DNA of 64,000 nt from an uncultured Gemmatimonadales bacterium. GTDB taxonomy: Bacteria; Gemmatimonadota; Gemmatimonadetes; Gemmatimonadales; Gemmatimonadaceae. The notes beneath the pieces are model-generated. The model was not told the origin of the DNA. It was given only the letters and a program-made list of their open reading frames with translations, and did no database searches. The stretch lies in NCBI GenBank assembly GCA_963793305.1, contig CAWBZV010000005.1, positions 512,001-576,000 on the forward strand, given 5' to 3'. Below are positions 4,166 to 63,788 of this stretch, one piece after another. The position numbers and the translations under genes are program-made. Position 1 is the stretch's first letter. Each line of letters begins with the position of its first letter.

Positions 4166-4183
4166 GTATTGAACGATCCCAAT
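4166..4183 (-). promoter_or_regulatory. 18-bp repeated promoter motif, copy 1 (ATTGGGATCGTTCAATAC)
   Basis: 18-bp spacer then TAGCGT; points at the MBL gene. Confidence 0.65.
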
Positions 4184-4259
4184 GCGATGGTCGAACGAAC
4201 CGGCACGAAATAGTCGGTCCGTGCACAGACAGTCGTGGCCGGCCGAAGCCGGAGAACAG

Positions 4260-4277
4260 GTTGCATTCATCCAAGAC
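4260..4277 (+). promoter_or_regulatory. Motif copy 2 (GTTGCATTCATCCAAGAC)
   Basis: 19-bp spacer then CAACGT, followed by GGAG and a small ORF. Confidence 0.6.
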
Positions 4278-4314
4278 GGCTTGGTTTGTGGAAGTCCAAC
4301 GTGGAGATGACCAC

Positions 4315-4449
4315 GTGTCGGCCCATCGTGGTACCAGCCTAACCACACGAGCCATCGGCTCAGGACATTGCGCCCGCTGCGGCCGCCCGCCGGGCGGGAA
4401 GCCAAGATGCCAGTACCGCAACGGACGTTGCGGCCTTGGTGGCGCCTGA
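4315..4449 (+). CDS. Putative 44-aa Cys-rich small protein
   Basis: GGAG RBS, GTG start, CARC-x10-C-x6-C; lies directly behind motif copy 2. Confidence 0.3.
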   Translation: MSAHRGTSLTTRAIGSGHCARCGRPPGGKPRCQYRNGRCGLGGA

Positions 4450-4500
4450 GTGGCCCTACGGTTGCTTCGGCCAGTGTGAACACGAGGTGTCCGGCGGCGT

Positions 4501-4518
4501 GCCTTGAACGATCCGCAC
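4501..4518 (-). promoter_or_regulatory. Motif copy 3, degenerate (GTGCGGATCGTTCAAGGC)
   Basis: Core CGTTCAAG present; no clear -10 or target gene. Confidence 0.35.
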
Positions 4519-4772
4519 ATTGCGCCGTGTTCGCGGCTGGTCTGCGGCCATTGATCGTTTGCGATGGGCTGATCACCAATCGTGAGACGTACACTACCGT
4601 CCCCGGTCCGACGCACACCCCGATCCATCCATGGTCTCGCTGCGTGGGGGAGTGACGCGGATTGCAACCTGAAGTAGCGCCTCGTCGGCGTCGCACGCCT
4701 CGGGGCGCAGGCTCCAACGCGCCCTGGCCGTCGTGAGAAACCAAGCGGAGGGGGCGTGTTGTCCTACGATGC

Positions 4773-5778
4773 GTGACGCGTATACTCGCACTCGTCGTGC
4801 TCGCGTGCCCGGCCTTCGCCCAGGCGCCGGCATCGACTCATGATCCGAATGCCGCCCGGTTCATATCGGGGGACATCGCCCGCTTCTGGCACGTCTTCGA
4901 TGGCGTGCCACACGACAGCGCTTCGCTCGCCAAGTCCGGGGCCGTCTTCCAGCGCGACTACATCGACAGCGGAAGCAGTGGCGTCCACGACTTCGTCGAT
5001 CGAACGTCTCAGGAGTGGCGATCACTTGGCGGGCGTGGTGGCGGCGCACGCCCGATATTACGCGGCGATTCGGCGGAATACGCTGGCGGTCGACACGGCC
5101 ACGAGGGTCAAGGAGACGATTCGCCGAAGTTTCCGCCGATTGGCCGCACTCTGTCCCGAGGCCGTATTCCCGGACGTTTACTTCCTGATCGGGGCAATGA
5201 GTTCGGCCGGCACCGTGTCACCGCACGGTCTGCTCATCGGTGTCGAGATGAATGCGCGCGACAATGCGACGCCGATCGAGGAGCTGGACGCGTGGCATCG
5301 CGCGGTCATTGGCCGGATCGCGGATCTGCCATCGATCGTCGCCCACGAGCTGATTCACATCGAGCAGCCGCCGATGGACTCGGAGCCGACGGTCCTCGAC
5401 GTAGCGCTCCACGAGGGCGGCGCGGACTTCGTCGGCGAGCTTATCTCTGGTGGGTTGATCAATCGCGTCCAGCACGCGTACGGGGATGCCCACGCAGCCG
5501 AACTGTGGGCGGAGTTCAGTCGGGCGCGTGATACGCAGCAGCTGGCCGATTGGTTCTATCAGGGCGACAAGGCGAAGGATCGTCCGGCCGATCTCGGGTA
5601 CTATGAGGGATACAAGATCGCGGAGGCGTTCTATCGCCGAGCGCCGGATAAGGCGGTGGCGGTCTGTCGGATCATGCGCGGGACAAACGCGCGCGAGCTG
5701 CTCCGCCAGAGCGGCTATAGCGTGCCGCCGCGCTCACACGCAACCGATCCTGGGGGCGGTGTGTCTCACGAGCCGTGA
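4773..5778 (+). CDS. Secreted DUF2268-like putative Zn-dependent protease; +1 frameshift at ~4998
   Basis: Signal peptide; AHELIH, EGGADF and DLGYYEGY motifs. Confidence 0.75.
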
Positions 5779-5875
5779 CCGAGACTCGCACCGCGCAGGC
5801 TGCGGCCGACCGGGAGGTTGATCTCGTCACGGACTCTATCTGCCGCTCGTTTGGATGACCGGCTTCGGATCGCGG

Positions 5876-8266
5876 TCACTCCTCCCGCATCGTGCGCGCT
5901 GGGTCTATCCGGGTCGCGCGGCGGATCGGTGTCAGCGAGGCCACGCCGGCCACCGCGACGACCACGCTCGCGGCGATCCCGAATGCGAGCGGGTCGCGCG
6001 GATCTACGCCGGTCGCGAGATGCGCGACGAACCGCGATAGTGTGAGTGCGGCCGGCAAGCCGATCGCCAGGCCGAGGCCGGTGAGCACGCCGCCGTGGCC
6101 GGCGATCAGGCGACGGATGTCGCGTCGCGTAGCGCCGAGGGCGATGCGCACGCCGATCTCGCGCGTGCGCTGGCCGACCATGAAGCTGACGACGCCATAG
6201 AGGCCGATGCCGCAGAGGGCCAACGCGACCACCCCGAAACCCACGAACAGCATCGTCGTGATCCGCGACGTGACGGTGTGCTGTTCGACGAGGGTGGCGA
6301 CCGTCGTGATCTGCGCCAGCGGCACGAGCGGGTCGACACCCGTCACCGCCGTGCGAACTGTCGGCAGGACCGCCAGTGGGTTGCCTCGGGTTCGGACGAG
6401 GAGCCACTTTGGTTCACCCGACGACGAGGCATCATACATCTGCTCAGGGAATCGCACGCCGGCCTCCGGCAGTGCGACATCCGCGGTGACACCGACGATC
6501 GTCCACCACGGGCCGATGCTCGCCATGCGCAGGCGGTGTCCGAGCGCGCTCTCCTGTGGCCAATACCGGTGCGCCATGCGGGCGTTGATCACGATCTCGT
6601 TGTTCGACGATGCCGTGTACGTCCGTCCTTCGAGGATCGGTAACTCGAGGACCGCGAAAATGCTGGGATCGGCGCTCATCTTCGACATGAATGGCGGCTG
6701 CTCGTTGGGCGCGAGTGACCGTCCGTCGATGGTGAGCGCGCCAAGGATTGCACCCGTGGTTGGTGGCGCCACCTCGGCGATGGCGGCGGCGGTGACCCGC
6801 GGGGAGCGGCGGATCACCTGCACCATCCGGGTCATCGCATCCGTGCGATCGACCGGATTCGCGTAGCGCGCGCCGGCGAATACGAGGCGCACGGCGAGAA
6901 TGTCGCGCGGTTCGTAGCCGAGGCGTTCACGGCTCAGGTGGATGACATGTCGGACGAGCACGCCGGCAGAGATGAGCAGCGTAACCGACATCGCGATCTG
7001 ACTCACGACGAGCGCGTCGCGCAGCAGTCCGCTCCGGCGGCGCCCCGGCGTGATGCCACCGCCTGATCGGAGCGTTCCGGCCACGGCATGCGTCGTCGAT
7101 CGCAACGCGGGCAGCAATCCACTGAGCAGGCCAGTCAGGAGCGAGATCCCAATGCTGAAGGACAGCAGCCAGGCGTTCGGGGAGAGCGGGCCCAGGAACG
7201 AACGCAGGTTGACGTCGCCGGGCGCCGTCGTCCAGCTGATGGTCACGAGCTCGATGATCCAGGCTGCGATGGCGATGCCGAGCACGCCGCCGGTCACGGC
7301 CAGGAGGCCGCTCTCGACGAGGTGCTGCTGTATGAGTCGGCGACGGCTGGCACCCAGTGCGCTGCGCAGTGCGATCTCCCTCCGCCGCTCGATGCCGCGG
7401 GCGAGCAGCAGGTTGGCCACGTTGGCGCAAGCGATCAATAGAACGAGGCCCACCGCGGCGGCGCACACGAACAGGGTGTCGCCGGCGTACAGCCGGACGA
7501 ACTCCGCGGGACGTTGCAGCAACGGCACCATGGTACCGAGTGACACGCGCACCGCCGACTGGGGCGTTGCCGCCGCCAGATCAGAGGTCGCGGCCTTGAG
7601 CGTGACGCCGCGACGCAGCCGTCCAATCGCGGCCGCCATCTCGACGGTGTCACGCACCGATGCCGGCAGATACACGCTCCATCCTCCGATGGTCGCGTGC
7701 GCGATATCGAGCTCGGGCGGCGCCACCCCGATCACCGTCCGGCTCGATCCGTCGAGCGTGAGGCTTTTGCCGATCGCCGAACGAGGCTCGCCGAAGTGAT
7801 TGATCGCGAAGGTCGAGCTCACGATCGCCACCGGGCCGGCGCCGGCGGCGGCGTCCGCATCGGTGAAGCTCCGCCCCAGCGTGGGCGGCGTGCGGAGCAC
7901 CGCAAACAGGCCGGGCGTGATGCGTATGCCCGGAATCACTTCGGGCGTGCCGGCCCCCGTCAGCGTCAACTCCTGTTCCCGATACGCCTCCAACGCCTCG
8001 AACGTGCGCGCCGAGCGGCGCCAGGCATCGAGCGTGGCATTGGACGCCGACAGTTGGAAGGTATGGGTGTCATTGGTCATCGACACGAACACGAGGCCAC
8101 GGGTGTCGAACGGCACCGGATGCACGAGCGTCTGCTCCAGCAGCGAGAAGATCGCGGTGTTGGCTCCGATGCCGAGCGCCAGCGTGAGGATCGCGGTGGC
8201 CGCGAAGATGGGTCGCGCGCGCAGCGCCCGTACGGCGTATTGGATATCCAGGCCGAGCTGAGACAT
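5876..8266 (-). CDS. ADOP-family duplicated ABC permease (MacB/FtsX-type)
   Basis: TLALGIGANTAIFS, LLIACANVANLLL and REIGVRIALGA motifs. Confidence 0.92.
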   Translation of the reverse strand: MSQLGLDIQYAVRALRARPIFAATAILTLALGIGANTAIFSLLEQTLVHPVPFDTRGLVFVSMTNDTHTFQLSASNATLDAWRRSARTFEALEAYREQELTLTGAGTPEVIPGIRITPGLFAVLRTPPTLGRSFTDADAAAGAGPVAIVSSTFAINHFGEPRSAIGKSLTLDGSSRTVIGVAPPELDIAHATIGGWSVYLPASVRDTVEMAAAIGRLRRGVTLKAATSDLAAATPQSAVRVSLGTMVPLLQRPAEFVRLYAGDTLFVCAAAVGLVLLIACANVANLLLARGIERRREIALRSALGASRRRLIQQHLVESGLLAVTGGVLGIAIAAWIIELVTISWTTAPGDVNLRSFLGPLSPNAWLLSFSIGISLLTGLLSGLLPALRSTTHAVAGTLRSGGGITPGRRRSGLLRDALVVSQIAMSVTLLISAGVLVRHVIHLSRERLGYEPRDILAVRLVFAGARYANPVDRTDAMTRMVQVIRRSPRVTAAAIAEVAPPTTGAILGALTIDGRSLAPNEQPPFMSKMSADPSIFAVLELPILEGRTYTASSNNEIVINARMAHRYWPQESALGHRLRMASIGPWWTIVGVTADVALPEAGVRFPEQMYDASSSGEPKWLLVRTRGNPLAVLPTVRTAVTGVDPLVPLAQITTVATLVEQHTVTSRITTMLFVGFGVVALALCGIGLYGVVSFMVGQRTREIGVRIALGATRRDIRRLIAGHGGVLTGLGLAIGLPAALTLSRFVAHLATGVDPRDPLAFGIAASVVVAVAGVASLTPIRRATRIDPARTMREE

Positions 8267-8417
8267 GGCCTGTTCGATGGTAAGATCCATACCAGCGATC
8301 GGCCCATGTCAACTACGTGGTGCATCGGCGCTTTCGTCTGGTGCGAGGCGGTCGTGGTGTTCGCCGGCGGGACCGCCTGCTCGATTACGAGACCAGTGGA
8401 TCGCGTGAAGAGGCAGT

Positions 8418-8435
8418 GTCTTGAACGAATGCAAC
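8418..8435 (-). promoter_or_regulatory. Motif copy 4 (GTTGCATTCGTTCAAGAC)
   Basis: Consensus match; intergenic; points toward the ADOP gene. Confidence 0.7.
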
Positions 8436-8532
8436 GCGTCCTTGGTGACGCGGGTGACGATCACTCCCTCTACACCCATCCGGCCGGCCTTGGTGGCGCG
8501 TGACCATCTGGCGGTGGATTCCGTCGCCGCGT

Positions 8533-8955: not shown

Positions 8956-8958
8956 GCG

Positions 8959-11507: not shown

Positions 11508-11525
11508 GTCTAGAACACACGCAAC
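11508..11525 (-). promoter_or_regulatory. Motif copy 5 (GTTGCGTGTGTTCTAGAC)
   Basis: 19-bp spacer then CAGATT; points at the 11412 gene. Confidence 0.7.
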
Positions 11526-11546: not shown

Positions 11547-11564
11547 GTTGGGTTCCTTCAAGAC
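11547..11564 (+). promoter_or_regulatory. Motif copy 6 (GTTGGGTTCCTTCAAGAC), orphan
   Basis: Back-to-back with copy 5; no + strand gene downstream. Confidence 0.55.
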
Positions 11565-11632: not shown

Positions 11633-14209
11633 CTAATTCGTTTGAAGCGCCAGCCTCGGATCGACGGTCGTGGCGCGTCGCACGGGGAAGTACGCCGCGG
11701 CGGTGGCGACGAGCAACATGAACAGTACGGCGCCGGCGAGCACCCATGGATCGAGCGGGCTCGTGCCGAAGAGCAGCGACGCAATGAGGCGCGACAGCGT
11801 GATCGCGCCGAGCAAGCCGAATGCGATACCGATCGCGGTCACCGCGAGGCCGTGGCGGAGCACCAAGGCGCGAATCGACCCGCGATCGGCGCCCAGCGCG
11901 ATGCGGATGCCGATCTCTTTCCGTCGCAGGGTGACGACGTACGACAGGATGCCGAAGAGGCCGACGGCCGCCAGCGCCAGTGCGACCGCGGCGAACGCCG
12001 TGAGGAGGCGCATGATGAACACGCGTTGCGCCGTGCCGCGTCCGATCGCATCGTCGAGCGCCATCGGTTGGTCGACGACGAGTCGCGGGTCGAGCGCGGC
12101 CAACGTGCGCCGAGCCTGGGGGAGGAAGTCGAGTGGTGGACCGTCCGTGAGCACCACCTGTGTCAGCTCCCAGTTCCACGAGGCGAACTGGCGGTGCGGG
12201 TGGTAGATGTACGCGTCCGCGTGCCCGGTGGCATCGACTGCAACGTCGCCAACGACCCCGATGACGACGAGCGGGGGCCCTCCGCTCGATAGGCGTTGGC
12301 CAATGGGGACGATGCCGCGAAAGAACCGTTGCGCGGCGCTCTGGCTGATCACGACATGGCGGGGCGCGCCGGAGTCGGTGAGCGGTTGTTCGCGGTCGTC
12401 AAACGTCCGGCCAGCGATGAGCGGGATGTGCGTGGCGGCGAAGTAGTTGCCCGACACGACGCGGTTTTGCGCCATGTAGTGATAGTTGCTGTCGGCCCCG
12501 CGCGGTCCGCTCAGGATCCGCACGCCCCACGAGTTGAAGTCGCCCGTGGCCGGCAGCTTGGTGACGCCGCCCGCGGCGCGCACGCCGGATTGTTCGGCGA
12601 GCCGGTGCGCGAGCGCCTCGTAGAACTTGGCGCGCGCGGTCGAATCGTACATTGCCTCGGGGAGCGCGACGCGGAACGTGAGCACGTGATCGCCGCGGAC
12701 ACCGAGAGGCAGGTCCCGAAGCCGGGCGAGGCTCGCCAACAACAGGCCAGCGCCGACGAGGAGCACGAACGCGAGCGCGACTTGGATGACGACCAGTCCA
12801 GCCCTCAGCGTACCTTGCCCGGCGCTTGCCGTGCCCGCTGCGCCGCGCGTCTGGTTACCGATCCGCGCCGCGCGCAGCGCGGGCGCGAGGCCGAACATGA
12901 TGGCGCTGAGCGAGGAGATCGCGAGGCAGAACAGCAGCATGCGCGGATCGAGCGTCAGCTGATCGAGTCGCGGAATCGACTCCGCGCCCAGCCAAACGAG
13001 GCCGCGCATGACGACCCACGCGACGCCCAAGCCGGCGATGCCGCCCCCCAGGGCAAGCGTAGCGCTCTCCGTCAATAGCTGCCGCACGATGCGGCTTCGG
13101 CGTGCGCCGAGCGCGGCGCGCAGCGCCAATTCGGGTCTCCGCTCCGACGCCCGGACGAGCAGCAGGTTCGCGACATTCACGCAGACGAGCAAGAGCACCA
13201 GTCCGACGGCGCCGAACACAAGTTTAAGGGCCGAGCCAGCGGATCCGACAACGTCGGCCTTGAGCGGATCCAGCAGCGCCTTGGCGTTCTTCGTCCGCGG
13301 CTCCTGAACGGCCAGCGACTGTTGGAGCGCACTGATCTCCGCCTGCGCCCGCACGAGCGACGTGCCCGGTTGCAATCGCGCGAGCATCGTGAGCCAGAAG
13401 TTGCCCGGATTGTCGGGCTGCGAGAGGTCGATCGGCACCCACGCGTCGACATCGCCCATGATCGGGTCACGCAGGCCATCGGGGCCGACACCGATCACCG
13501 TGTACGGGGCGCCGTTGAGTGTCAAGGAGCGGCCGAGGACCTTGCGATCACCACCGAAACGGCGCTCCCAAATGTGATGGCTCAGCACGACCACGTGCGC
13601 CCCGTTCTCTTCGTTCTCCGCGAACGGTCGCCCGAGCGGCGGCAGCGCGCGCAACATCGCAAAATACCCGCTGCTCACGGGCAGCAATCGAATCCGCTCG
13701 GCTCCAGCGCCCAGGTCAACGTCCGCGCCGACCAGATCGTACGTAAAGAGCGCGGCGACCGACTGGAACAACGTCATGTGGTCATGGTACGCTTTGAAGT
13801 GGAACGTGCTCACGAACGTGCGCTCGGCCGGACTGCCATACGATGTATAGACTCGGACCAGTTGCGCGGGCTCGGCGTACGGCAATGGCTTGAGCAGCAC
13901 GGCGTCAACCACGCTGAACACGGCGGTGGTGCCCCCAACGCCTATCGCGAGTGTCGCGATGGCGAGCAAGGCGAATTGGGGTCGCTTGCCGAGGGTTCTC
14001 AACGACCAGGCGACATCGGCGACGGTCTCCTCGATCACCCGCGTGCCGCGCGCATCGCGCACGTCCTCCTTGTAGCGCTCGATGTCGCCGAACGCCTTCC
14101 GCCCCGCCATCTCCAGGTGGAATCGCATCTCCTCGGCCATGTCCCGCTCTTCCTGGCCGCGAAACACGAGCGCGTGGAGCCGCTCCCGGAGATCTGACCA
14201 GAGGCTCAC
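11633..14209 (-). CDS. ADOP-family duplicated ABC permease
   Basis: EEMRFHLEM N-terminus, LAIGVGGTTAVFS, CVNVANLLL, KEIGIRIALGA. Confidence 0.92.
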   Translation of the reverse strand: MSLWSDLRERLHALVFRGQEERDMAEEMRFHLEMAGRKAFGDIERYKEDVRDARGTRVIEETVADVAWSLRTLGKRPQFALLAIATLAIGVGGTTAVFSVVDAVLLKPLPYAEPAQLVRVYTSYGSPAERTFVSTFHFKAYHDHMTLFQSVAALFTYDLVGADVDLGAGAERIRLLPVSSGYFAMLRALPPLGRPFAENEENGAHVVVLSHHIWERRFGGDRKVLGRSLTLNGAPYTVIGVGPDGLRDPIMGDVDAWVPIDLSQPDNPGNFWLTMLARLQPGTSLVRAQAEISALQQSLAVQEPRTKNAKALLDPLKADVVGSAGSALKLVFGAVGLVLLLVCVNVANLLLVRASERRPELALRAALGARRSRIVRQLLTESATLALGGGIAGLGVAWVVMRGLVWLGAESIPRLDQLTLDPRMLLFCLAISSLSAIMFGLAPALRAARIGNQTRGAAGTASAGQGTLRAGLVVIQVALAFVLLVGAGLLLASLARLRDLPLGVRGDHVLTFRVALPEAMYDSTARAKFYEALAHRLAEQSGVRAAGGVTKLPATGDFNSWGVRILSGPRGADSNYHYMAQNRVVSGNYFAATHIPLIAGRTFDDREQPLTDSGAPRHVVISQSAAQRFFRGIVPIGQRLSSGGPPLVVIGVVGDVAVDATGHADAYIYHPHRQFASWNWELTQVVLTDGPPLDFLPQARRTLAALDPRLVVDQPMALDDAIGRGTAQRVFIMRLLTAFAAVALALAAVGLFGILSYVVTLRRKEIGIRIALGADRGSIRALVLRHGLAVTAIGIAFGLLGAITLSRLIASLLFGTSPLDPWVLAGAVLFMLLVATAAAYFPVRRATTVDPRLALQTN

Positions 14210-14303
14210 GCCACCAGCCAGTTGACGGCGGTCGACGTGCGCCGCTTCATGCGTCGACGAGCGTGCACAGGACGAGCATCTCGAGCGTGTCTGGAAGGAT
14301 CAT
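14206..14303 (-). pseudogene. PadR-family regulator remnant (internal deletion)
   Basis: N-terminus MILPDTLEMLVLCTL and C-terminus KRRTSTAVNWLVA* in under 100 bp; stop overlaps the ADOP start (GTGA). Confidence 0.65.
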
Positions 14304-14306
14304 GCT

Positions 14307-14340
14307 CCTGTAGATTGTCTACAGGTAGCAGCGCTGTCAA
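14307..14340 (-). promoter_or_regulatory. Palindromic operator CCTGTAGA-ttg-TCTACAGG overlapping a TTGACA-17-CAATCT promoter
   Basis: Perfect 8-3-8 inverted repeat at 14307-14325, immediately upstream of the PadR remnant. Confidence 0.7.
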
Positions 14341-14398
14341 GCGATTTGAGCGAGCGACCGTGTCAGGACACCGCGGCCGTAGTCGTTCACAGCGGCAG

Positions 14399-14416
14399 GT
14401 TGGATTCATGCAAGAC
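14399..14416 (+). promoter_or_regulatory. Motif copy 7 (GTTGGATTCATGCAAGAC)
   Basis: 18-bp spacer then CAACTT. Confidence 0.65.
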
Positions 14417-22967: not shown

Positions 22968-22985
22968 GTTGCGTCTGTTCAAGAC
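22968..22985 (+). promoter_or_regulatory. Motif copy 8 (GTTGCGTCTGTTCAAGAC)
   Basis: ATG of a BlaI remnant 31 bp downstream. Confidence 0.7.
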
Positions 22986-23016: not shown

Positions 23017-23157
23017 ATGCCGCAATTGCGCGCGCGCGCGGGCACCGTCCTTCGCCTGCCGACGGCAGCTGAGCACCATGTGCTCCGGGTCTTGTGGACG
23101 TACGGTCTCCGCACGCCGTCCACGGTACCGTCAACCCCCACGTATACTGGGACATGA
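23017..23157 (+). pseudogene. BlaI/MecI/CopY repressor N-terminal remnant
   Basis: RLPTAAEHHVLRVLWTY matches RLPTAAELAILRGLWTF of the intact gene at 54751-55194. Confidence 0.65.
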
Positions 23158-24008
23158 TTGCACTCCATCTCTTAATGATCTTGGCCCAGGCCCAGGCGCC
23201 AGACTCGCTCCTCACGACCGTGCGCGGGCTCAGTCGCGTTATCCCTGGCGAATTGCCGACCGCGGTGAGTTACCTGAGCGCCTACGAAGACTCCCTGGTC
23301 ATCGGGAGTGCGGTCGACGGCGCGGGATCATCCAATGTCTTCATGGTCACGGGCGTCTTCCAAGTGCGATTCAAGCACGGCTGGATCATGGTCGACGCCG
23401 CCATGGACTCATCGACCCAACATCAGATCCGCTCGTTCAAGGCCGACAACTTCGCGAGGATCGAGACGGCGCTCGAGAAGGCGAACTTGATCGTCATCAC
23501 GCACGAGCACGCGGACCATGTTCAGCCGTTGGTCAAGTCGCCGATCGCTGACCAAGTCGCGCCGCATACATTGCTCACCAGGGAGCAAGTCCAGACTCTG
23601 GTCACGAAGCCCGAAGTCGCGTTCACCTCAATGGACTCATCGCAGGTGGGCCGGTACATTGTCGTCGCTTACGACCGGGCGCTGCCGATCGCGCCCGGGG
23701 TTGTGCTGATCAAGGCGGCCGGGCACACACCGGGATCGCAGATGGTCTATGTGAAGCTCGCGTCGGGGCGAGAAATGATCCTCGCTGGCGACGTCGCGTG
23801 GTTCGTGCTCGGCATCGATACGCAACGCCAGAAGCCCGACTCGACGAGCCGGTTCATGGGCGAGGATCGTACGGCCCTCGGCAAGGAACTCGCCTGGCTC
23901 AAGGACGTGCGAGCGCAAGGGGTCACGGTCGTGGTGAGTCACGACGGGAGCCAGCTCAAGTCGCTCGCCAAGAAGGGTGTGCTCAGCGAGGGACTGGTAG
24001 TCCAGTAA
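23154..24008 (+). CDS. Secreted MBL-fold metallo-hydrolase
   Basis: THEHADH, GHTPGSQ, LAGD, SHD; TATACT 5 bp upstream of the ATG. Confidence 0.85.
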   Translation: MIALHLLMILAQAQAPDSLLTTVRGLSRVIPGELPTAVSYLSAYEDSLVIGSAVDGAGSSNVFMVTGVFQVRFKHGWIMVDAAMDSSTQHQIRSFKADNFARIETALEKANLIVITHEHADHVQPLVKSPIADQVAPHTLLTREQVQTLVTKPEVAFTSMDSSQVGRYIVVAYDRALPIAPGVVLIKAAGHTPGSQMVYVKLASGREMILAGDVAWFVLGIDTQRQKPDSTSRFMGEDRTALGKELAWLKDVRAQGVTVVVSHDGSQLKSLAKKGVLSEGLVVQ

Positions 24009-26356: not shown

Positions 26357-26374
26357 GTCTTGAACGAACGCAAC
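26357..26374 (-). promoter_or_regulatory. Motif copy 9 (GTTGCGTTCGTTCAAGAC)
   Basis: 18-bp spacer then TACCAT. Confidence 0.75.
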
Positions 26375-30270: not shown

Positions 30271-30288
30271 GTTGCGTCCGTTCAAGAC
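30271..30288 (+). promoter_or_regulatory. Motif copy 10 (GTTGCGTCCGTTCAAGAC)
   Basis: 19-bp spacer then AATACT. Confidence 0.75.
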
Positions 30289-31158: not shown

Positions 31159-31176
31159 ATATTGAATGAACCCAAC
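31159..31176 (-). promoter_or_regulatory. Motif copy 11 (GTTGGGTTCATTCAATAT)
   Basis: 18-bp spacer then TATTCT. Confidence 0.65.
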
Positions 31177-31188: not shown

Positions 31189-31206
31189 GTTTCGTTCATT
31201 CAAGAA
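31189..31206 (+). promoter_or_regulatory. Motif copy 12 (GTTTCGTTCATTCAAGAA)
   Basis: 18-bp spacer, TATGGT, 6 bp, then ATG. Confidence 0.65.
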
Positions 31207-32071: not shown

Positions 32072-33248
32072 TTAGTCTGGTGTCGGCCCGACATAGGATT
32101 CGGCGAGGCTCGTGAGCGCCGCCTCGGATCGAGTCACGTAGTCGAGCTCCGCGAGCTGCCGGCGATAGTCGAACGCATTGCCGTCTGGGTTGCGGTGTAG
32201 CATCGCCGTCATCCAGTATGCGAAGCGCTGCGCCGCCCAGACGCGCGCCAGGCAGGTGTCCGAGTAGGCGTCGAGCAAGTCCTCACGGCCGCGGCGATAG
32301 TAGGCCGCCAATGCTCGCGCGAGCGTACGGAACGTCGGCGAGCGCGAGATTCAAGCCCTTTGCTCCAGTCGGAGGCACGATGTGCGCTGCGTCGCCGGCC
32401 AAGAAGAGGTGATTGAAGCGCATCGGCTCTATCACGAAGCTGCGCATTCCCGTAATGCCCTTCTGGAGAATCTCACCGTGGTTCGGGCGCCATCCGTCGG
32501 CACACGCGAACCGTGTGTCGAGCTCCTCCCAGATCCGCTCATCGGTCCATGGGGCGAGCGGCTCGTCGGCGTCGCATTGGAGGTAGAGGCGGGTCACGGT
32601 CGAGGAGCGCATGCTGAAAAGGGCGAACCCGCGCTCGTGCAATGCATAGACGAGCTCACTGGAGCTCGGCGCGGCCTGGGCGAGGATGCCGAGCCAGCCG
32701 AAAGGGTAGGTGCGGTCGTAGGCGACGTAGGCTGCCGGGGGCACCGATGCGCGTGAGATGCCATGGAATCCGTCGCATCCGGCGAGGAAATCGCAGGTGA
32801 TGTTTTGTTCTTCGCCCGCGATCCGGCAGCGGATCCGGGGGGTCGGTGTGTCGAGGGCGGCGATGGAGACGGATTCGACCTCGAAGTACAACGGACGCCC
32901 GGTGGCGCGGCGGGACGCGATGAGATCTTTGACGACCTCGTTCTGTCCGTAGATCGTGATGGACCGTCCGTTGGTCAGCGCTTCGAAATCAACGTGGTGT
33001 CGGCGCCCGCCAAAGCAGAGCCACATGCCGCTGTGTCGCATGCCCTCGCGCAGTAGCCGTTCGCCGACGCCGGCGGCCTCCAGGAGGCGGACGGACCCGT
33101 GCTCCAGGACACCGGCCCGAACCCGATCGACCACGTAATCGCTCGATTTGTTCTCGACGATGACCGAGTCGATCCCTTCCAGGTGGAGGAGGTGGCCGAG
33201 CATGAGGCCGGCCGGTCCCGCGCCAATGATCCCGACTTGTGTTCGCAC
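32072..33248 (-). CDS. pobA: 4-hydroxybenzoate 3-monooxygenase; +1 frameshift at ~32330
   Basis: MRTQVGIIGAGPAGL, RAGVLE, GCDGFHG, YPFGWLGIL, GDAAHIVPPTGAKGLNLA. Confidence 0.93.
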
Positions 33249-33303
33249 GTGGTGACGAGACGGAAGTGTTGATTTCGACCGCTACTGGTGACACGATAAC
33301 GTC

Positions 33304-34011
33304 GTGGCTCCGACAACGTATCCGCGACCCGAGCCGGACGACCAGCCGCCCGTCATGTATCCGCCGTATCGCGCCACGGTGCGCCGGGCGCCGGCCGAGC
33401 CGATGATCCGCATCCCCCATACCTTGTCGGAGTTGACGGGACCGTGGTATGGCGACTTACCGCTGGGCGAGACCGACAACGATCTTACGCGACAGCACAC
33501 GGGCGAACCACTCGGCGAGCGGATCATCGTCACGGGACGGGTCCTCGATGAGGATGGCCGGCCGATCCCACGGGCGCTGGTGGAGGTGTGGCAGTGCAAT
33601 GCGGGGGGCCGGTATCGGCACGGGCGCGACAACCATCCTGCCCCCCTGGATCCGAACTTCACGGGGGCTGGTCGAACGATCACCGACGATCAAGGGCGCT
33701 ATCGGTTCGTGACGATCAAGCCCGGCGCGTACCCGTGGCAGAATCACGCCAACGCGTGGCGCCCGGCGCACATTCATTTCTCGCTCTTCGGCTCCTGCTT
33801 CATCACGCGGATGGTCACCCAGATGTATTTCCCGGGTGACCCGCTGCTCGCTGGCGATCCGATCTATCAGTCCGTGGGGACCGAGCGTGGGCGGCGACGA
33901 CTCGTCGCGACGTACGACCCGGCGCTGTCCGAGCCGGAATGGGCGCTCGGCTACCAGTTCGATTTTGTGTTGCGCGGACGCAATGCAACGCCGTTCGAGG
34001 GGACGCCGTGA
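33304..34011 (+). CDS. pcaH: Protocatechuate 3,4-dioxygenase beta subunit
   Basis: DNDLT, GERIIVTGRVLD, WQCNAGGRYRH, LDPNF, WRPAHIHFS, TQMYFPGDPL. Confidence 0.95.
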   Translation: MAPTTYPRPEPDDQPPVMYPPYRATVRRAPAEPMIRIPHTLSELTGPWYGDLPLGETDNDLTRQHTGEPLGERIIVTGRVLDEDGRPIPRALVEVWQCNAGGRYRHGRDNHPAPLDPNFTGAGRTITDDQGRYRFVTIKPGAYPWQNHANAWRPAHIHFSLFGSCFITRMVTQMYFPGDPLLAGDPIYQSVGTERGRRRLVATYDPALSEPEWALGYQFDFVLRGRNATPFEGTP

Positions 34012-34577
34012 CGGACTGCGTGCCGTCGCAGACTGTTGGCCCATTCTTTCACCTGGGGCTCTGCGCCGATGAACGGTGGGGTCGCATCGCGAGTCCGGGC
34101 GCTGCTGGCGACCACGTGCAGCTGCGGATCGCGGTCCTGGACGGTGACGGGGCGCCGGTAACGGATGCGCTGATCGAACTGTGGCAGGCCGATGCGAAAG
34201 GACGGTACCATCATCCGCGCGACCCAGGCGCGTCCAGTGTCGATCCGGCGTTCGGGGGGTTCGGGCGATTGCCCACCGACGCCGAGGGTGAGTGCGTCTT
34301 CGAGACCATACGGCCTGGGGGCGTGAGTGACGCTCGGGGCGGTCGGCAGGCCTCGCACGTGAACGTCTCGGTGTTCGCGCGTGGTCTTCTCCGACGGCTC
34401 GTCACGCGGGTGTATTTTGCTGACGATCCTGGTCTCGACACGGACGCCGTCCTGTTGCTCGTTCCGGCGAGCCGTCGACGCACGTTGATCGCGACCCCCG
34501 TTGCTGGACCGCTTGGCGGATGGCGTCACGTGATCCGGTTGCAAGGCGAGGGCGAAACCGTGTTCTTCGACCTGTAG
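34008..34577 (+). CDS. pcaG: Protocatechuate 3,4-dioxygenase alpha subunit
   Basis: PSQTVGPFFHLGL, WQADA, FARGLL, IRLQGEGETVFFD. Confidence 0.95.
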   Translation: MTDCVPSQTVGPFFHLGLCADERWGRIASPGAAGDHVQLRIAVLDGDGAPVTDALIELWQADAKGRYHHPRDPGASSVDPAFGGFGRLPTDAEGECVFETIRPGGVSDARGGRQASHVNVSVFARGLLRRLVTRVYFADDPGLDTDAVLLLVPASRRRTLIATPVAGPLGGWRHVIRLQGEGETVFFDL

Positions 34578-34585
34578 GCGTGGGC

Positions 34586-35725
34586 ATGCCCGTTCGCTTG
34601 ATCGAGTGTCTGGTGTCGACCGATGAGATGGCGGACCTCTTCTCGGATCGCGCGGTCCTCGAAGCCATGCTGCGCTTCGAGGTGGGGCTGGCGCGGGCCC
34701 AAGCCCGATTGGGTCTCATCCCCGCTCGCGCGGCGGAGTCGATTGCTCGGGCGGCGGACCCGGACCAGTTCGACACCGCGGTGTTGGCGCGGGACGCGCG
34801 GCGATCGGCGACGCCGGTCGTTCCGCTCGTGGATGCACTGACCGAGCGGGTTCGGGCGATCGAGCCGACGGACGCGGCGTTCGTGCACTTGGGAACGACG
34901 AGTCAGGATGTGGCCGACACCGCGCTCGTGCTGATGCTACGGCGCGCAGAGGGTGTGCTCACTGGCGATCACGAGCGGCTCACGCGTGCGCTGCGCGAGC
35001 TGTCCGGGCGCCACGCGGCGACGGTCATGGTTGCTCGGACGCTCCTGCAGCCGGCGCAGGCAACGACATTCGGGTATAAGGTCGCGCTTTCCCTGGCGTC
35101 GATTCAGCGGAGCTGGCGCGACCTGCGTGGTGCGCTCGCCGGTGCGATCCAACTCCAGTTCGGCGGGGCAGCGGGCACGCTCGCAGCGTACGCGGACGCC
35201 CACGCGCTCGCAGCCGAACTCGGTCGGGAGCTCGAGCTCCCGGTACCATTGGCGCCATGGCATACGCATCGCGACCGACTCGCGAGCGCAGTCGCCAGCT
35301 TGGGCATCTACGGCGCGAGCCTGGCGAAGCTGGCGCGCGATCTGACGCTCCTCATGCAAGTCGAGGTGGGCGAGGTGTCGGAGCCGGGCGGACGGTCGTC
35401 ATCCATGCCGCACAAGCGGAACCCGGCGGGGTCGGTCGTGGCACTCGCTTCCTTCGCGAGAATTCCGGGGCTCGTCGGCACATACTTGAGTCTCATGGTC
35501 CAGGAGCACGAGCGCGCGGCAGGTCACTGGCAGGCGGAGTGGCGGACGGTTGCCGACGTCGTGACGGGCACGGCGAGCGCGTTGGCGGCGGTCGCCGACG
35601 CCGTCGAACATCTCGAGGTGCGGCAGGATCGCATGCGGGCCAACGTGGAGTCCACGGTGCACGATGCGAATGTGGGCGCGGCCGAGGCATTGCGCCGGCG
35701 ACTGCTCGACGAGGCGGCGGAGTAA
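34586..35725 (+). CDS. pcaB: 3-carboxy-cis,cis-muconate cycloisomerase
   Basis: HLGTTSQD, QFGGAAGTL, SSSMPHKRNP, QEHERAAG; operon context. Confidence 0.9.
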   Translation: MPVRLIECLVSTDEMADLFSDRAVLEAMLRFEVGLARAQARLGLIPARAAESIARAADPDQFDTAVLARDARRSATPVVPLVDALTERVRAIEPTDAAFVHLGTTSQDVADTALVLMLRRAEGVLTGDHERLTRALRELSGRHAATVMVARTLLQPAQATTFGYKVALSLASIQRSWRDLRGALAGAIQLQFGGAAGTLAAYADAHALAAELGRELELPVPLAPWHTHRDRLASAVASLGIYGASLAKLARDLTLLMQVEVGEVSEPGGRSSSMPHKRNPAGSVVALASFARIPGLVGTYLSLMVQEHERAAGHWQAEWRTVADVVTGTASALAAVADAVEHLEVRQDRMRANVESTVHDANVGAAEALRRRLLDEAAE

Positions 35726-35729
35726 CGCC

Positions 35730-36981
35730 GTGCCGTTCGCGACCGTTGGGGGACTTCGGCACTACTATAGAATCGACGGCGCCGACGACCGACCGACACT
35801 CGTTCTGGCGCACGCGCTGGGGTGCGATCACACCCTGTGGGAGGCCCAGGCGACCGCGTTGGCGGCGCGCTTTCGGGTGGTTCGTTACGACGTGCGCGGG
35901 CACGGCGCGACGGAGGCGACCACTGGCGACTATAGCATTGAGATGCTCGCGCGGGACGCGTTGGGGCTGGCCGACGAGTTGGGCATTCGAGCGATTCGCG
36001 TTCTGCGGGCTGTCGCTCGGGGGCATGATCGGTCAGTGGTTGGCGGCGCGGGCGCCAGAACGCGTGACGGCCCTCATCCTGGCCAACACCACGGCGCGCC
36101 TGATCGATCCCAGCGTCATGGACGATCGGCGCCGGACGGTCCTGGAGCAGGGGATCGCCGCGGTCGCCGACGAGGTGCTGTCGCGGTTCTTCATGCCTCA
36201 GACGTTGAGATCGTCTTCCGCCGTGGTGGCGAATGTGCACCGAGTGCTTGGCGCGACGAACCCGGTAGGGTATGGCGGTTGCTGCGCGGCGATCCGGGAC
36301 ATGGATCAGACCGAGATGGTGAGCGGGATTCGGGTGCCGACGCTCATCATCGTCGGTGACCACGACACCTCAGCGCCGTGGCTGGGGCACCGTGACGTGC
36401 TCGCGTCGCGCATACCGGATGCGCGGGTGGTGCGGCTTCCGGCCGCCCACTTGTCCAACCTCGAGCGGCCGCGGTCGTTCACCGCGGCGCTGTGGCGGTT
36501 TCTGGTGCCGGAGTCGGAAGATGCGCTCGAAGCCGGCGCGGCGAAGCGACGCGAGATCTTGGGCGACGCGCATGTGGACCGGGCCGATGCGGCGACGACG
36601 GATTTCACGCGGGCGTTCCAGCAACTCATCACGCGGTACGCGTGGGGCACGATCTGGCAACGGCCTGATCTCGATGATCGCACGCGCCGCGTGCTCGTGT
36701 TGGTGATCACGGCTGCGCTCGGGCGCTGGGAGGAGTTTCGGATGCACGTGCGCGCTGGGCTGGCGCACGGGCTGGAGCCGTGCGACGTCGAGGAGGCGCT
36801 GCTCCAGGTGGCGGTCTACGCCGGTCTACCGGCGGCAAACACGGGATTTCAGATCGCTTCAGAACGAGATGCACGCGTAGCACGCGACGTGGCGAGTGTT
36901 GTTACTTCCGGGAACTCGTCCGACTCTCGGGCAGTAGGCTGGATTCGAACAAGGCGACCGAGCCATCGGGCAAGGTGGTGA
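35730..36981 (+). CDS. pcaD: Fused 3-oxoadipate enol-lactonase / 4-carboxymuconolactone decarboxylase (PcaL-type); +1 frameshift at ~35987; C-terminus probably run-on
   Basis: YDVRGHG, GLSLGG, AAHLSNLE, then RREILGDAHVDR, FQQLITRYAWGTIW, LLQVAVYAGLPAAN. Confidence 0.88.
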
Positions 36982-39281: not shown

Positions 39282-39299
39282 TGCTTGCACGAAAGCAAC
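39282..39299 (-). promoter_or_regulatory. Motif copy 13 (GTTGCTTTCGTGCAAGCA)
   Basis: Intergenic; points at the CPBP gene; TATCGC at 18 bp. Confidence 0.55.
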
Positions 39300-43820: not shown

Positions 43821-43838
43821 TTCTAGAACAAACGCAAC
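43821..43838 (-). promoter_or_regulatory. Motif copy 14 (GTTGCGTTTGTTCTAGAA)
   Basis: Intergenic; points at the S9 peptidase. Confidence 0.7.
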
Positions 43839-46743: not shown

Positions 46744-46761
46744 GTCTAAAACAAACGCAAC
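46744..46761 (-). promoter_or_regulatory. Motif copy 15 (GTTGCGTTTGTTTTAGAC)
   Basis: Back-to-back with copy 16; no clear -10. Confidence 0.55.
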
Positions 46762-46807: not shown

Positions 46808-46825
46808 GTTGCTTTTGTTCAATAC
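46808..46825 (+). promoter_or_regulatory. Motif copy 16 (GTTGCTTTTGTTCAATAC)
   Basis: 19-bp spacer then TAAATT. Confidence 0.7.
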
Positions 46826-50794: not shown

Positions 50795-50812
50795 GTTGCA
50801 CTCGTTCAAGAC
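50795..50812 (+). promoter_or_regulatory. Motif copy 17 (GTTGCACTCGTTCAAGAC)
   Basis: Consensus match upstream of a + strand gene. Confidence 0.7.
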
Positions 50813-55221: not shown

Positions 55222-55239
55222 GTCTTGAACGGCTGCAAC
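55222..55239 (-). promoter_or_regulatory. Motif copy 18 (GTTGCAGCCGTTCAAGAC)
   Basis: 18-bp spacer then CAGTTT, then the BlaI start. Confidence 0.75.
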
Positions 55240-55799: not shown

Positions 55800-55817
55800 G
55801 TCTTGAACGACCGCAAC
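55800..55817 (-). promoter_or_regulatory. Motif copy 19 (GTTGCGGTCGTTCAAGAC)
   Basis: 18-bp spacer, CACGTT, 8 bp, then ATG. Confidence 0.75.
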
Positions 55818-58373: not shown

Positions 58374-58518
58374 AGGCCGAACATAATCACTGGGTGGGCC
58401 ACCCGCGCTCCCTCGGCGACAGTTCTACACACTGCTTTCCATGGCGGCGGCAAAAGGTTCCTCACTTGTGTCAGCGCATGCCGCCGCGGCCGTGGATCAG
58501 CGCGCGGACGCAGGCGGA

Positions 58519-58979: not shown

Positions 58980-59044
58980 TGGGGATCTCCTGAAGTGGTG
59001 CAGCCATGGCGGGAGCCGAAACTAAGGGTGGCGCCAGCGTCGGC

Positions 59045-59062
59045 GTCTTGCACGAAGACAAC
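59045..59062 (-). promoter_or_regulatory. Motif copy 20 (GTTGTCTTCGTGCAAGAC)
   Basis: Equivalent position to copy 1; TAGTTT at 20 bp. Confidence 0.6.
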
Positions 59063-59078
59063 ACGATGGTCGGATCGG

Positions 59079-60263: not shown

Positions 60264-60330
60264 AACGGCACACGGGCGCCCACGGCGCCCGCCGAGACGA
60301 GTTTCGCCCCTGCCACCCTATTCGGGCAAG

Positions 60331-60348
60331 GTTGCAATCGTTCTAGAC
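60331..60348 (+). promoter_or_regulatory. Motif copy 21 (GTTGCAATCGTTCTAGAC)
   Basis: 18-bp spacer then CACCAT. Confidence 0.75.
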
Positions 60349-60466
60349 AACATCGGCGCGGCTCGCCACCATCGATCCCGCGCGTCCGTCCTGGAATGTG
60401 GCGTGTGCGAACCGGACCATCCCACACGAATATCGAGTGCACGAGCCTATGCCTAGTTTGCGGGCC

Positions 60467-61505: not shown

Positions 61506-61534
61506 GTACGCGCGGCTGTGTCGCTTGCCGTGAT

Positions 61535-61552
61535 GTTGGATTTGTTCTAGAC
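61535..61552 (+). promoter_or_regulatory. Motif copy 22 (GTTGGATTTGTTCTAGAC)
   Basis: Intergenic, ~260 bp upstream of the AraC gene; no clear -10. Confidence 0.6.
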
Positions 61553-61809
61553 AACGCGCCGACAATGTGGTTCTCGAGCCTGCGTCACTATGGGTATCGT
61601 CTCACCACTGCGATTTCTCGGTTGGTGGCCCGCGACCATCGGCGTGTGATTGTGGCACTGCTCATCCCAACTTCGGGACTACCCGGGGTGCATTGCCGGC
61701 GTACTGGCCGAATATCGCCACTCGACGGTGGCCCGGCGCCGGCACGGGCCTTTCTCTATCTCGTCCTCATGGACTTACAAACGCTGCAGGTCGCGCCGAC
61801 CGAGTGACG

Positions 61810-62734
61810 ATGGCGCGACACGAGAGGCGGCCGCAACTGGCGCGCGGTGAGTACTACGGCCGTGTCGTGACGCATCGCGATACGGCGGGGCTGCGGTTGA
61901 CCGATCTGCATCACGCGCGGGGCGTGTTCTTGCCGGAACACACGCACGAGTGCGCGTATTTTTGGCTCCTGCTGTCTGGCGCGTATCGAGAGCACATCGG
62001 GTCGAGGGAGTACCCGCATTGGCCGTTCTCGTTCGGATACTGTCCGATCGGGCTCGAGCATCGGGATGAGGTGGGTCGGTGTGGCGCCCGGTTCTTCGCG
62101 ATCGAGCTCGACGCGCACGGTGCGCAGATGATCGCGGACCTGAACCGTCCGATGAGCACGGCACCGTTCGAGGTGCACGACACGTTGGCGTTCAGCGCGC
62201 TCCTCCAGCTCCACACGGAGTTCTTGCGCGCCCGCGACGGTGGGTATGAGGTGGAGTGCCTCACCGCGGAAACGCTGACGGCCGAGTTCATCGGCTTCGC
62301 GTTCGAGCCCCGGGCCCGGCCCGCGCACCGCCAACCGCGCTGGCTCGCTCCGGTGATCGAGTATCTCGACGCGCACTATGCCCATGTCATCCGCATTAGC
62401 ACGTTGGCGGCCAGTGCGGGAGTGCATCAGGTACACCTGGCGCGCGTGTTTCGCGAGGTCCACCGCTGCAGCATTGCGCAGTATCTGACGACGTTGCGCG
62501 TGCGGCGCGCCTGTTCGTTGCTCGAACGTCGGAGAGCTGACGCTGAGCCAGATTGCGCTACTGACGGGATTCTCGGATCAGAGTCATTTCACGCGCGCCT
62601 TTACGGCCACGGTCGGCTGTTCGCCTGGGGCCTTCCGGCGGGCCGTGTTCCCGCGCGTGCGGTTGGTGCCGGATGCAGCGACACACGCCGCACCGTGTTA
62701 TTCCGAGGGGATTCGTTCGAGTCAGTCGGCGTGA
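61810..62734 (+). CDS. AraC/XylS-family transcriptional regulator; +1 frameshift at ~62533
   Basis: Cupin part LPEHTHECAYFWLLLSGAYRE; PRWL; GVHQVHLARVFR; corrected tail LSQIALLTGFSDQSHFTRAF..GCSPGAFRR. Confidence 0.9.
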
Positions 62735-62771
62735 GGGTCCCCGGCGCGTCAGCGCCACGGAGTGCGTCGGC

Positions 62772-62790
62772 ATTGCGCGGCGTTCAAACC
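62772..62790 (+). promoter_or_regulatory. Motif variant (ATTGCGCGGCGTTCAAACC, one extra base)
   Basis: Between the AraC stop and the CPBP start (28 bp upstream of the ATG). Confidence 0.4.
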
Positions 62791-62818
62791 AAAATGGACT
62801 GGTGTTGTCTCACCGATC

Positions 62819-63679
62819 ATGAGTCGCATCCTTCGGTTCATCGGTCTCATCGCGCTCCTGAGCACGCCGCTGTACATCCTGCACGCCTACAGCCATACAC
62901 CGGGCGCCGGCGCCTACATTCGGCTCCTCATGTGGTGTCCGGCGGCCGCGGCACTCCTCACCCTGCGATCCACCGGCGGGGACCTCGCCAGCATCGGCTG
63001 GCGCTGGCCCTCGGCGCAGTGGGTGGCGTTGAGCTGCCTCATTCCCGTGCTGTACCTCACGGCCACGTATGCGGTTGGGTGGATGATGGGTGGTGGCACA
63101 TTCTTCAATGAAGCATTCGTCCGCACCACGCGGACGAGCTTTGCGTGGCAACGGCTCCCGGTGTGGTCCGTGGCTCCGCTCTTCGTCATCGTCGCCGGAT
63201 CGTCGCGTCTTGTCGCGGACGCCGCACCACTGGGTGAAGAGATCGGCTGGCGCGGCTTTCTTGTACCAGCGCTCGTTGAGCGGCACGGTTTCGTGGTGAC
63301 ATCACTCGTCTCGGGGTTACTCTGGGGGCTCTGGCACTTCCCCTTGATGTTCATCAATCAACCCATGGACTCGTCCGCGCTGATTGGTGCTGCGTGCTTT
63401 CTGGCCACGTTGACTGGGTTATCGTTCCCGATGACCTGGCTTCGGCTCCGCAGTGGCAGCGTCTGGAGTGCGGCATTGTTCCACGTCTCGCACAATACGT
63501 TCAATTCCATCGCGCTGGCACTTCTCACGCCGACCGCGCGGACGCCGATCCTCATGGACGAAACGGGCGTCGTGATGGCAGCGGTCGGATGCCTGATGGC
63601 CGCGATCTTTTGGGCGGTCGCTCGCCGCACGGGGGGAATGGGCACGCCGCGCGTCGCGCCGAGCAGTCCGATGCGTTAG
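62819..63679 (+). CDS. CPBP/Abi intramembrane metalloprotease
   Basis: LGEEIGWRGFL, WGLWHFP, SGSVWSAALFHVSHN. Confidence 0.9.
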   Translation: MSRILRFIGLIALLSTPLYILHAYSHTPGAGAYIRLLMWCPAAAALLTLRSTGGDLASIGWRWPSAQWVALSCLIPVLYLTATYAVGWMMGGGTFFNEAFVRTTRTSFAWQRLPVWSVAPLFVIVAGSSRLVADAAPLGEEIGWRGFLVPALVERHGFVVTSLVSGLLWGLWHFPLMFINQPMDSSALIGAACFLATLTGLSFPMTWLRLRSGSVWSAALFHVSHNTFNSIALALLTPTARTPILMDETGVVMAAVGCLMAAIFWAVARRTGGMGTPRVAPSSPMR

Positions 63680-63770
63680 TAGACCATCCTCGTGAAGCGG
63701 ATCCGGCGCGTTCGCATTGCGCACTACCTGACCACGGGAGTGCGTCGGCGTCTCGCCGACGAGTCAAGTC

Positions 63771-63788
63771 GTTGCATTTGTTCAATAC
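63771..63788 (+). promoter_or_regulatory. Motif copy 23 (GTTGCATTTGTTCAATAC)
   Basis: 18-bp spacer then TATCGA; start codon 31-34 bp downstream. Confidence 0.7.

Follow-up and report, generated by a model that had tools for sequence, protein, structure and literature searches.

Island-encoded master regulators of the AraC family, such as ToxT, Rns, HilD, and ExsA, control genes of their own accessory region, and the operons that they drive are few and serve a single apparatus. RhaS consists of a cupin-type sensor plus a domain of the helix-turn-helix (HTH) type, an architecture like that of the candidate regulator treated here. Regarding the MarA/SoxS/Rob/RamA group, a class II marbox promoter is defined by a forward site overlapping the −35 element, and the marbox consensus is gcannwwntgnnaaa (excerpted account in PMC12052159). 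In T4-like phages, PeSLs combine a strong sigma70-like promoter with a terminator stem-loop and mediate recombination (excerpted account in PMC2839356). The present study deals with a promoter motif that recurs in a 64,000-nucleotide stretch of DNA (hereafter the window; G000:C5:512001-576000) from an uncultured Gemmatimonadales bacterium, where G000 is the source genome (a 5.7-Mb assembly) and C5 and C2 are two of its contigs, and with an unnamed AraC/XylS-family regulator encoded in the same region, of which the motif is probably the binding site. The names of homologous proteins indicate the family Gemmatimonadaceae.

The original prediction had placed 23 copies of an 18-bp motif in the window, and a direct check found all 23 at the predicted positions and strands, 13 on the minus strand and 10 on the plus strand (Table 1). 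The consensus proposed with them is exact for 12 copies; the other 11 are variants, the copy at 4501 being the weakest. A matrix built from the 23 copies scores them at 14.3-32.6 bits, and an order-4 Markov control with the composition of the genome yielded 7 matches of at least 14 bits in 1.5 Mb, corresponding to approximately 0.3 per 64 kb. The improved motif extends over 20 positions, (A)(T/C)GTTG(C/G)(G/A)TT(C/T)GTTC(A/T)AGAC. Independent gene calls, obtained with a simple caller made for this analysis, place all 23 copies in intergenic DNA, as had been claimed, and an Rfam search of the window gave 0 matches, so that the motif is no known RNA or repeat there. At the level of the genome, 60 sites of at least 16.5 bits were detected, all of them within C5:435375-609649 (approximately 175-180 kb), at one per 2.9 kb. 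An extra site, C5:439183 (L002:19183-19201), is masked by one inserted base that is absent from short-read contigs, bringing the total to about 61 strong sites confined to C5:435-610 kb. The cluster belongs to one variable region, not to the whole genome. Equal frequency in coding DNA was not observed: only 3 of the 60 sites lie in called genes, and the region is 84% coding. A chromosome-domain motif of the matS/parS kind was ruled out, the site being oriented, intergenic, and tied to a −10 element.

The information profile of the sites is high over the 20 positions, flat over the spacer, and rises again at the A and T of an nAnnnT hexamer, 18 nt after the motif. This hexamer follows at a gap of 18 nt in 29 of the 60 sites, compared with 3.6% in the intergenic background (p 5e-26), and at a gap of 19 nt in 7 more. 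In the window, the xAnnnT hexamer reported after 12 copies was recovered after exactly 12, eight at gap 18 and four at gap 19. Owing to the fixed 18-nt gap to the −10-like hexamer, the site overlaps the −35 element; with a 17-nt spacer, the −35 hexamer consists of the last five motif bases plus one. Among those 29 promoters, the −35 mostly shows 2-3 of 6 matches to TTGACA and the −10 shows 2-3 of 6 matches to TATAAT, indicating that they are weak promoters. A start codon approximately 27-34 bp downstream had been reported for five copies; an ATG is present there in 8 of the 23, and it is a called gene start in 4 (31189, 55222, 55800, and 63771). Over the region, 17 ATG codons were seen at gap 28-35 against 6.1 expected, with a peak at 30-31, which fits putative leaderless transcripts from the predicted start. 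Back-to-back site pairs lie 5-76 nt apart, and no recurring second site of the kind expected in a RhaS-type dimer operator was found within 100 nt upstream in either orientation. As judged from these sequences, the architecture is a single monomer-sized site, unlike the two half-sites of RhaS-type regulators.

The lead to the regulator came from three other genomes (G243, G063, and G105), in which the motif is located either immediately behind a homologue of the AraC gene C5:586758-587684 or ahead of it in divergent orientation (3 of 13 loci). Phylogenetic footprinting was carried out on 107 outside loci with such a homologue (80 metagenomic and 27 genomic), leaving out two loci of the source genome and one unpublished locus. 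A site lies at the 5′ end of the homologue, in divergent orientation, or just past its 3′ end in 37 of the 107 loci. The density is 38 sites in 44,715 positions near the homologues versus 8 in 1,093,843 far positions, a 116-fold difference. Of the 37 outside sites, 26 are followed by TAnnnT at a gap of 18 or 19 nt, and 30 share the class II geometry of the regional sites, that is, an oriented, non-palindromic site over the −35 at a fixed distance from the −10. The top 8-mers beside the homologues, found without any matrix, are GTTCAAGA (29 of the 107 loci, 0.65 expected) and TTCAAGAC (31 of the 107), and these are also the top 8-mers of the intergenic DNA of the region. At 20 bits, a matrix derived from the outside sites yields 42 matches inside the region and a single one in the remaining 5.5 Mb. 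The class II AraC/XylS-type reading, originally offered by analogy, is thus supported by phylogenetic footprinting with the same −10 spacing, with the qualification that a single site stands in place of RhaS-type half-sites.

A profile search of the region revealed three copies of the subfamily. The first is the intact gene C5:586758-587684, which is located approximately 11 kb past the window and has a site in divergent orientation at its 5′ end. The second is the in-window gene 61810-62734, which is 72% identical to this paralogue, and the third is a remnant at C5:444102, whose neighbourhood matches an AraC-site-TonB receptor unit of the congener G005. As there are only three copies, the idea that each site brought its own AraC gene was ruled out. 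The frameshift of the in-window copy lies in a GAACGTC context, the same as that of two read-corrected errors, and is probably an assembly error; a full-length relative is 92% identical over the first 239 residues. Because of both this error context and this relative, the in-window gene is likely intact. Autoregulation through the site at 61535 is weakly suggested, because this site has no −10 match. The intact AraC matches HTH_18 (PF12833) with 81.3 bits against a cut-off of 33.6, and the in-window copy matches PF12833 in two frames. The N-terminal part has no Pfam match at 1e-5; a cupin-like beta-barrel is predicted at residues 18-100, plus the HTH domain, with a predicted local distance difference test score (pLDDT) of 95. 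The best fold matches are ToxT, Rns, CsvR, CuxR, and cupins, the closest being ToxT, Rns, and CuxR at an identity of 11-13%. H44 and H46 are nearly invariant among the homologues. Regarding the NCBIfam equivalogs AraC, RhaS, RhaR, MelR, RamA, Rob, SoxS, GbdR, FtrA, and RclR, all 23 matches are below the cut-off, the best score being 56 bits versus 208 required for AraC.

Taken with the promoter geometry, these data make it probable that the motif is the binding site of the regional cupin-plus-HTH AraC, acting as a class II activator at approximately 60 weak sigma70-type promoters. The two HTH units of one protomer would read two sub-boxes separated by about one helical turn, GTTG and TTCAAGAC, and the protein would occupy roughly −48 to −31, with the predicted start approximately 31 nt after the site and about ten leaderless targets. 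The N-terminal cupin may sense a small ligand, and the activator would offset the poor −35 and −10 boxes. We infer, in line with the original prediction, a shared switch for the regional genes.

Several observations weigh against this interpretation. At a threshold of 15 bits, 70 of the 107 outside AraC loci have no site, some of them being short or carrying variant boxes. The outside matrix is not fully independent, as its sites were picked by the window matrix; the 8-mer test is independent. The intact AraC has Q at the third cupin His of most homologues, and both regional AraC copies could be inactive. A hexamer at gap 18 or 19 is missing after 24 of the 60 sites. Most copies had been said to point at a downstream gene, and 51 of the 60 do face a same-strand gene, the other 9 facing the tail of a convergent gene. 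A site is present at only 36 of the 90 putative transcription-unit heads of the region. Of 1770 promoter pairs, no more than 2 show clear homology, which bears on the origin of few promoters. Finally, three DUF6597 AraC genes on C2 adjoin related boxes, and cross-talk is possible.

The last point bears on an alternative that we consider unlikely, in which the AraC represses by covering the −35, or the binder is a DUF6597-type AraC encoded elsewhere in the genome. A site over the −35 could block polymerase, and related boxes do flank the DUF6597 AraC genes on C2, at C2:63685 (GTCGCGTTTTTCCAATAC), at C2:758879 (GTCCGATTCATTCAATAC), and at about C2:867520. However, 60 of 60 regional sites and 27 of 27 outside subfamily sites have T at position 3, and the DUF6597-linked boxes have C there; no above-cut-off DUF6597 match was found in the region, and the weak core promoters fit activation. 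A DUF6597 AraC as the main regulator was rejected for these distinct boxes and for genes that are present on C2 only and none in the region, and is a minor rival. One of the DUF6597-linked boxes is encoded within the last codons of the regulator gene.

The system assigned here to the regional AraC resembles the class II marbox in its non-palindromic, oriented single site, in forward orientation over the −35, and in its large envelope-related regulon (PMC12052159, as excerpted), and RamA and Rob are the top sequence matches of its HTH part in the PDB. Unlike RamA and Rob, the regional AraC carries a cupin domain of its own, and its scores fall far short of the RamA and Rob cut-offs. Compared by eye, the marbox consensus as given in the excerpt of PMC12052159 does not match the regional motif matrix, and the mar regulon described there is conserved and chromosome-wide, whereas the regional one is lineage-specific and packed in 175 kb. 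The RhaS site overlaps the −35 by 4 bp, and the regional site would overlap it by 4-5 bp, as deduced from gap 19 or 18 (RhaS overlap from the excerpt of PMC9429829). RhaS and RhaR use two half-sites, and no second half-site was found at a fixed spacing in the region (RhaS and RhaR half-sites from the same excerpt, PMC9429829); in addition, the regional targets are not a sugar pathway, and the NCBIfam RhaS score is 26 bits against a cut-off of 288. The different sequence, the lack of a second half-site, and the scores below cut-off together indicate that the system is neither a marbox nor a RhaS system. In contrast to ToxT, Rns, HilD, and ExsA, there are approximately 60 separate promoters before unrelated hydrolase and transport genes, in addition to the low identity mentioned above.

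The motif is rare in other genomes. The exact pattern has 21 copies in G000 and a looser pattern 26, versus 0-2 per genome for either in 400 genomes of the phylum and 400 of the family; these samples overlap, many of the genomes are incomplete, and the tallies include unpublished genomes, on which no claim rests. The congener G005, whose AraC orthologue is 68% identical, has one site right behind the orthologue. G105 represents a small version, with three sites around its AraC and regions rich in homologues of the same gene families. In a GTDB scan, 15 matches were obtained, each of them single, and 4 adjoin an AraC homologue; no cluster occurs among these 15 or in the genome samples, the GTDB pattern catching only 5 of the 60 regional sites. 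The 55 matches in viral sequences all stand singly, without an AraC in their vicinity. Thus, relatives have one to three sites per regulator and the G000 lineage about 60. In two further genomes, G381 and G378 (loci L017 and L018), a strong site, accompanied by a −10-like hexamer, lies where an agmatinase-like gene ends, and the nearest 3 kb contain no AraC homologue. No description of the motif was found in the literature searched, regulon databases and supplements being outside its scope, so that a tabulated prediction may exist.

The targets include peptidases (M1, M13, M16, S9, and S41), esterases, beta-lactamase- and metallo-beta-lactamase (MBL)-fold hydrolases, and alkyl sulfatase, together with TonB receptors and their SusD-like partners, ADOP permeases, CAAX proteases, and LytTR regulators. 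By a crude rule of N-terminal hydrophobicity, 16 of 38 targets were picked out, versus 19% genome-wide, which is suggestive only. This target set suggests a scavenging or detoxifying envelope response.

Table 1. Motif sites and the candidate regulator gene in the window (window positions; gap, nucleotides between site and following hexamer)
Feature	Position	Strand	Remarks
Site	4166..4183	-	TAGCGT at gap 18; precedes MBL-fold gene
Site	4260..4277	+	Back-to-back with 4166; nAnnnT at gap 19
Weak site	4501..4518	-	14.3 bits; no −10 match
Site	8418..8435	-	Precedes ADOP permease 5876-8290
Site	11508..11525	-	Precedes carboxypeptidase-regulatory-like gene; G001 homologue (83%) without site
Site, possible orphan	11547..11564	+	Faces 3′ end of ADOP permease 11633-14209
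Site	14399..14416	+	Precedes flavin adenine dinucleotide (FAD) oxidoreductase / extracytoplasmic function (ECF) sigma genes; CAACTT at gap 18
Site	22968..22985	+	Precedes MBL-fold gene 23154-24008; homologues elsewhere (79-82%) without site
Consensus site	26357..26374	-	TACCAT at gap 18
Site	30271..30288	+	Precedes AHSA1-domain gene
Site	31159..31176	-	TATTCT at gap 18; faces end of convergent gene
Site	31189..31206	+	TATGGT at gap 18; predicted leaderless, with the esterase start 31 nt on
Site	39282..39299	-	Precedes CAAX-type protease
Site	43821..43838	-	Precedes S9 peptidase; promoter, ribosome-binding site (RBS), and first codons common to unrelated M16 peptidase at C5:594554
Site	46744..46761	-	Back-to-back with 46808
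Site	46808..46825	+	Precedes alkyl sulfatase; G105 homologue (85%) with decayed copy
Site	50795..50812	+	Precedes carboxypeptidase-regulatory-domain gene
Site	55222..55239	-	BlaI/CopY-type repressor start 28 nt on
Site	55800..55817	-	Gene start 33 nt on
Site	59045..59062	-	Precedes partial duplicate of MBL-fold gene 2990-4085
Site	60331..60348	+	Precedes YceI-domain gene; order AraC - site - YceI gene in G243, G063
Site	61535..61552	+	257 nt before in-window AraC gene; no −10 match
Site	63771..63788	+	LytTR response regulator start 35 nt on
AraC/XylS-family regulator, candidate binder	61810..62734	+	One-base frameshift near 62525

Regarding the growth of the regulon, many targets have paralogues elsewhere in G000 at 75-91% identity. 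The TonB-SusD pair at C5:476980-481376 is approximately 91% identical to a copy outside the region. The flanks of the outside copy are common to G001, G004, and G005 and contain no site, which makes the site-free context ancestral; the regional copy stands behind a site and has only the stretch from RBS to stop in common with the outside copy. By this sequence comparison, a derived promoter context is demonstrated for at least one target. In a second set of target homologues, 4 of 52 loci have a site at 15 bits, namely the AraC-linked one of G005 and three weak ones that were not placed. Since target homologues elsewhere, even at 90% identity, mostly lack a site, the genes were likely recruited to these promoters. 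Among 49 targets of outside sites, 19 match G000, and 6 have their best match in the region (three gene families, three genomes).

An opposite explanation, that most of the sites are passive leftovers that came in together with their genes and that the region is a decaying gene sink, appears improbable. It would account for the orphan sites, gene fragments, and partial duplicates, for DJ-1-, DinB-, and YceI-type targets that are site-linked in other genomes too, and for the decayed site before an 85% homologue in G105. However, most sites are near the consensus although their spacers are unrelated, and many of the apparent frameshifts are assembly errors. Furthermore, in 55 alignments representing 28 sites, only 4 homologues, three from G105, reached a forward score of at least 8 (compared with 2 in the reverse-strand control), and none of 48 homologue loci has a site at 15 bits, implying that most genes arrived without a site.

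It is also quite improbable that the site-bearing promoters act as recombination modules that shuffle or capture genes, like the PeSL cassettes of T4-like phages. The likeness consists of dozens of promoter-element copies in a hypervariable region, which in the phages is one of non-essential genes (PMC2839356, as excerpted), one promoter module before two unrelated genes, and regional copies that share only the RBS-to-stop segment with their syntenic counterparts. On the other hand, the homology to outside gene copies starts approximately 70-145 nt after the motif, at the RBS or start codon and not at the motif itself, both strands carry sites, and the read-contig joints shown include none at a site that is well supported. 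Unlike PeSLs as characterized in the excerpt of PMC2839356, the regional boxes are weak and activator-linked, and breakpoints were not found at the element. Gene-precise ends are not peculiar to the region, as ends within 30 nt of a gene boundary account for 10 of 36 there versus 46 of 86 for other paralogue pairs. A dedicated mechanism of gene-precise capture had looked supported until this control showed such ends to be as common outside, and was rejected. Recent duplication of one promoter was rejected as well, given 5 pairs with at least 19 of 36 identical positions versus 3.0 expected, and 2 clear homologous pairs. One of the promoters, common from the motif through the first codons, precedes both the S9 and the M16 peptidase. 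This single clear case of a promoter before an unrelated gene resembles promoter reuse and putative mobile promoters, which form highly similar groups in the excerpt of PMC3575422, whereas in the region only the operator and −10 are shared, and the spacers are unrelated in nearly all pairs.

As gene-precise ends are as common outside and few promoters are related, ordinary shuffling with selection is enough. The regulon of the regional AraC probably began as an AraC unit of the usual size, one to three genes, and expanded as ordinary rearrangement and selection acted on a hypervariable locus, with incoming gene copies placed behind site-bearing promoter-RBS segments. A stronger version, which we put forward as a doubtful speculation, is a self-growing regulon, in which AraC-dependent promoter-RBS modules would multiply in a chromosomal hot spot and capture accessory gene copies, within approximately 10% divergence, into one inducible secretome, as a chromosomal counterpart of phage PeSL shuffling.

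That the cluster is an assembly chimera or artefact is hardly conceivable: the assembly is a long-read metagenome-assembled genome with 5% contamination and spurious single-base insertions, and the GC skew is approximately +0.06 to +0.07 at C5:450000-550000 versus approximately −0.03 in the flanks, but short-read contigs of run X1, which may be the source sample of the assembly, match multi-kb pieces across several sites at approximately 99%, one of them bridging the left junction with a depth of approximately 9 on each side, and runs X3 and X5 of two further studies contain short near-identical pieces. Extra single bases relative to the short-read contigs are present at window positions 3929, 5003, 9465, 9570, 10195, 11090, 17125, and 18971, several of them at GAYG/CRTC words, and false frameshifts result.

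In the close congener G001, both flanks of the region lie on one contig, 18 kb apart, compared with 203 kb in G000; approximately 186 kb of G000 correspond in G001 to approximately 6 kb of other DNA that contains no site. This G000-specific DNA runs from the end of a LysR gene (C5:432106) to a repeat of the tRNA-Pro end near 618.0 kb, past which relaxase and integrase remnants were found. Because these remnants are beyond the repeat, the DNA with the sites represents a hypervariable locus adjoining a mobile element, not the interior of a bounded island. A tRNA-integrated island does not describe the sites, as tRNA-Pro end repeats and integrase/relaxase remnants occur only at approximately C5:618-629.5 kb and the sites lie outside. 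Nor is the region an integron cassette array, the sites being on both strands and at the 5′ ends of genes, with no Rfam match in the window. The segment L009:1-14600 (C5:615-629.6 kb) consists of tandem remnants of a mobilisable element (NikA/MobC, relaxase, and an integrase fragment) with repeated tRNA-Pro ends, and G001 has a shorter version of it. At the left edge, L002:12842-12915 (C5:432842-432915, minus strand) contains a tRNA-Ile-like gene with a UAU anticodon, as read from the assembly letters; it is 92% like the GAU copy on C2, and its stem changes are paired. A tRNA-Ile with a UAU anticodon is rare in bacteria.

Among other features, aromatic-degradation genes occupy window positions 32283-36981 (FAD monooxygenase, protocatechuate 3,4-dioxygenase, lyase, and carboxymuconolactone decarboxylase), and no site precedes them. 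At window positions 14260-14341, upstream of the ADOP permease, an 84-nt stretch is 86-88% conserved in four other copies, compared with 77% for the gene itself, and has no Rfam match. A lone site outside the region, C5:221842, is a GTTAA-type variant located 163 nt before a run of pilin-like genes.

In conclusion, the motif is probably a new AraC box, and its predicted regulon is unusually large, clustered, and lineage-specific. The AraC subfamily comprises more than 1,000 homologues at E ≤ 1e-20, the named ones being from Gemmatimonadota and Acidobacteriota; pairing the box with this unnamed subfamily would make targets predictable across uncultured soil bacteria. The region provides a natural snapshot of regulon expansion, all in one region of one lineage, in which the ancestral site-free context of at least one gene pair is still present in the same genome. 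It therefore bears on the standing question of how horizontally acquired genes get wired into a common switch.

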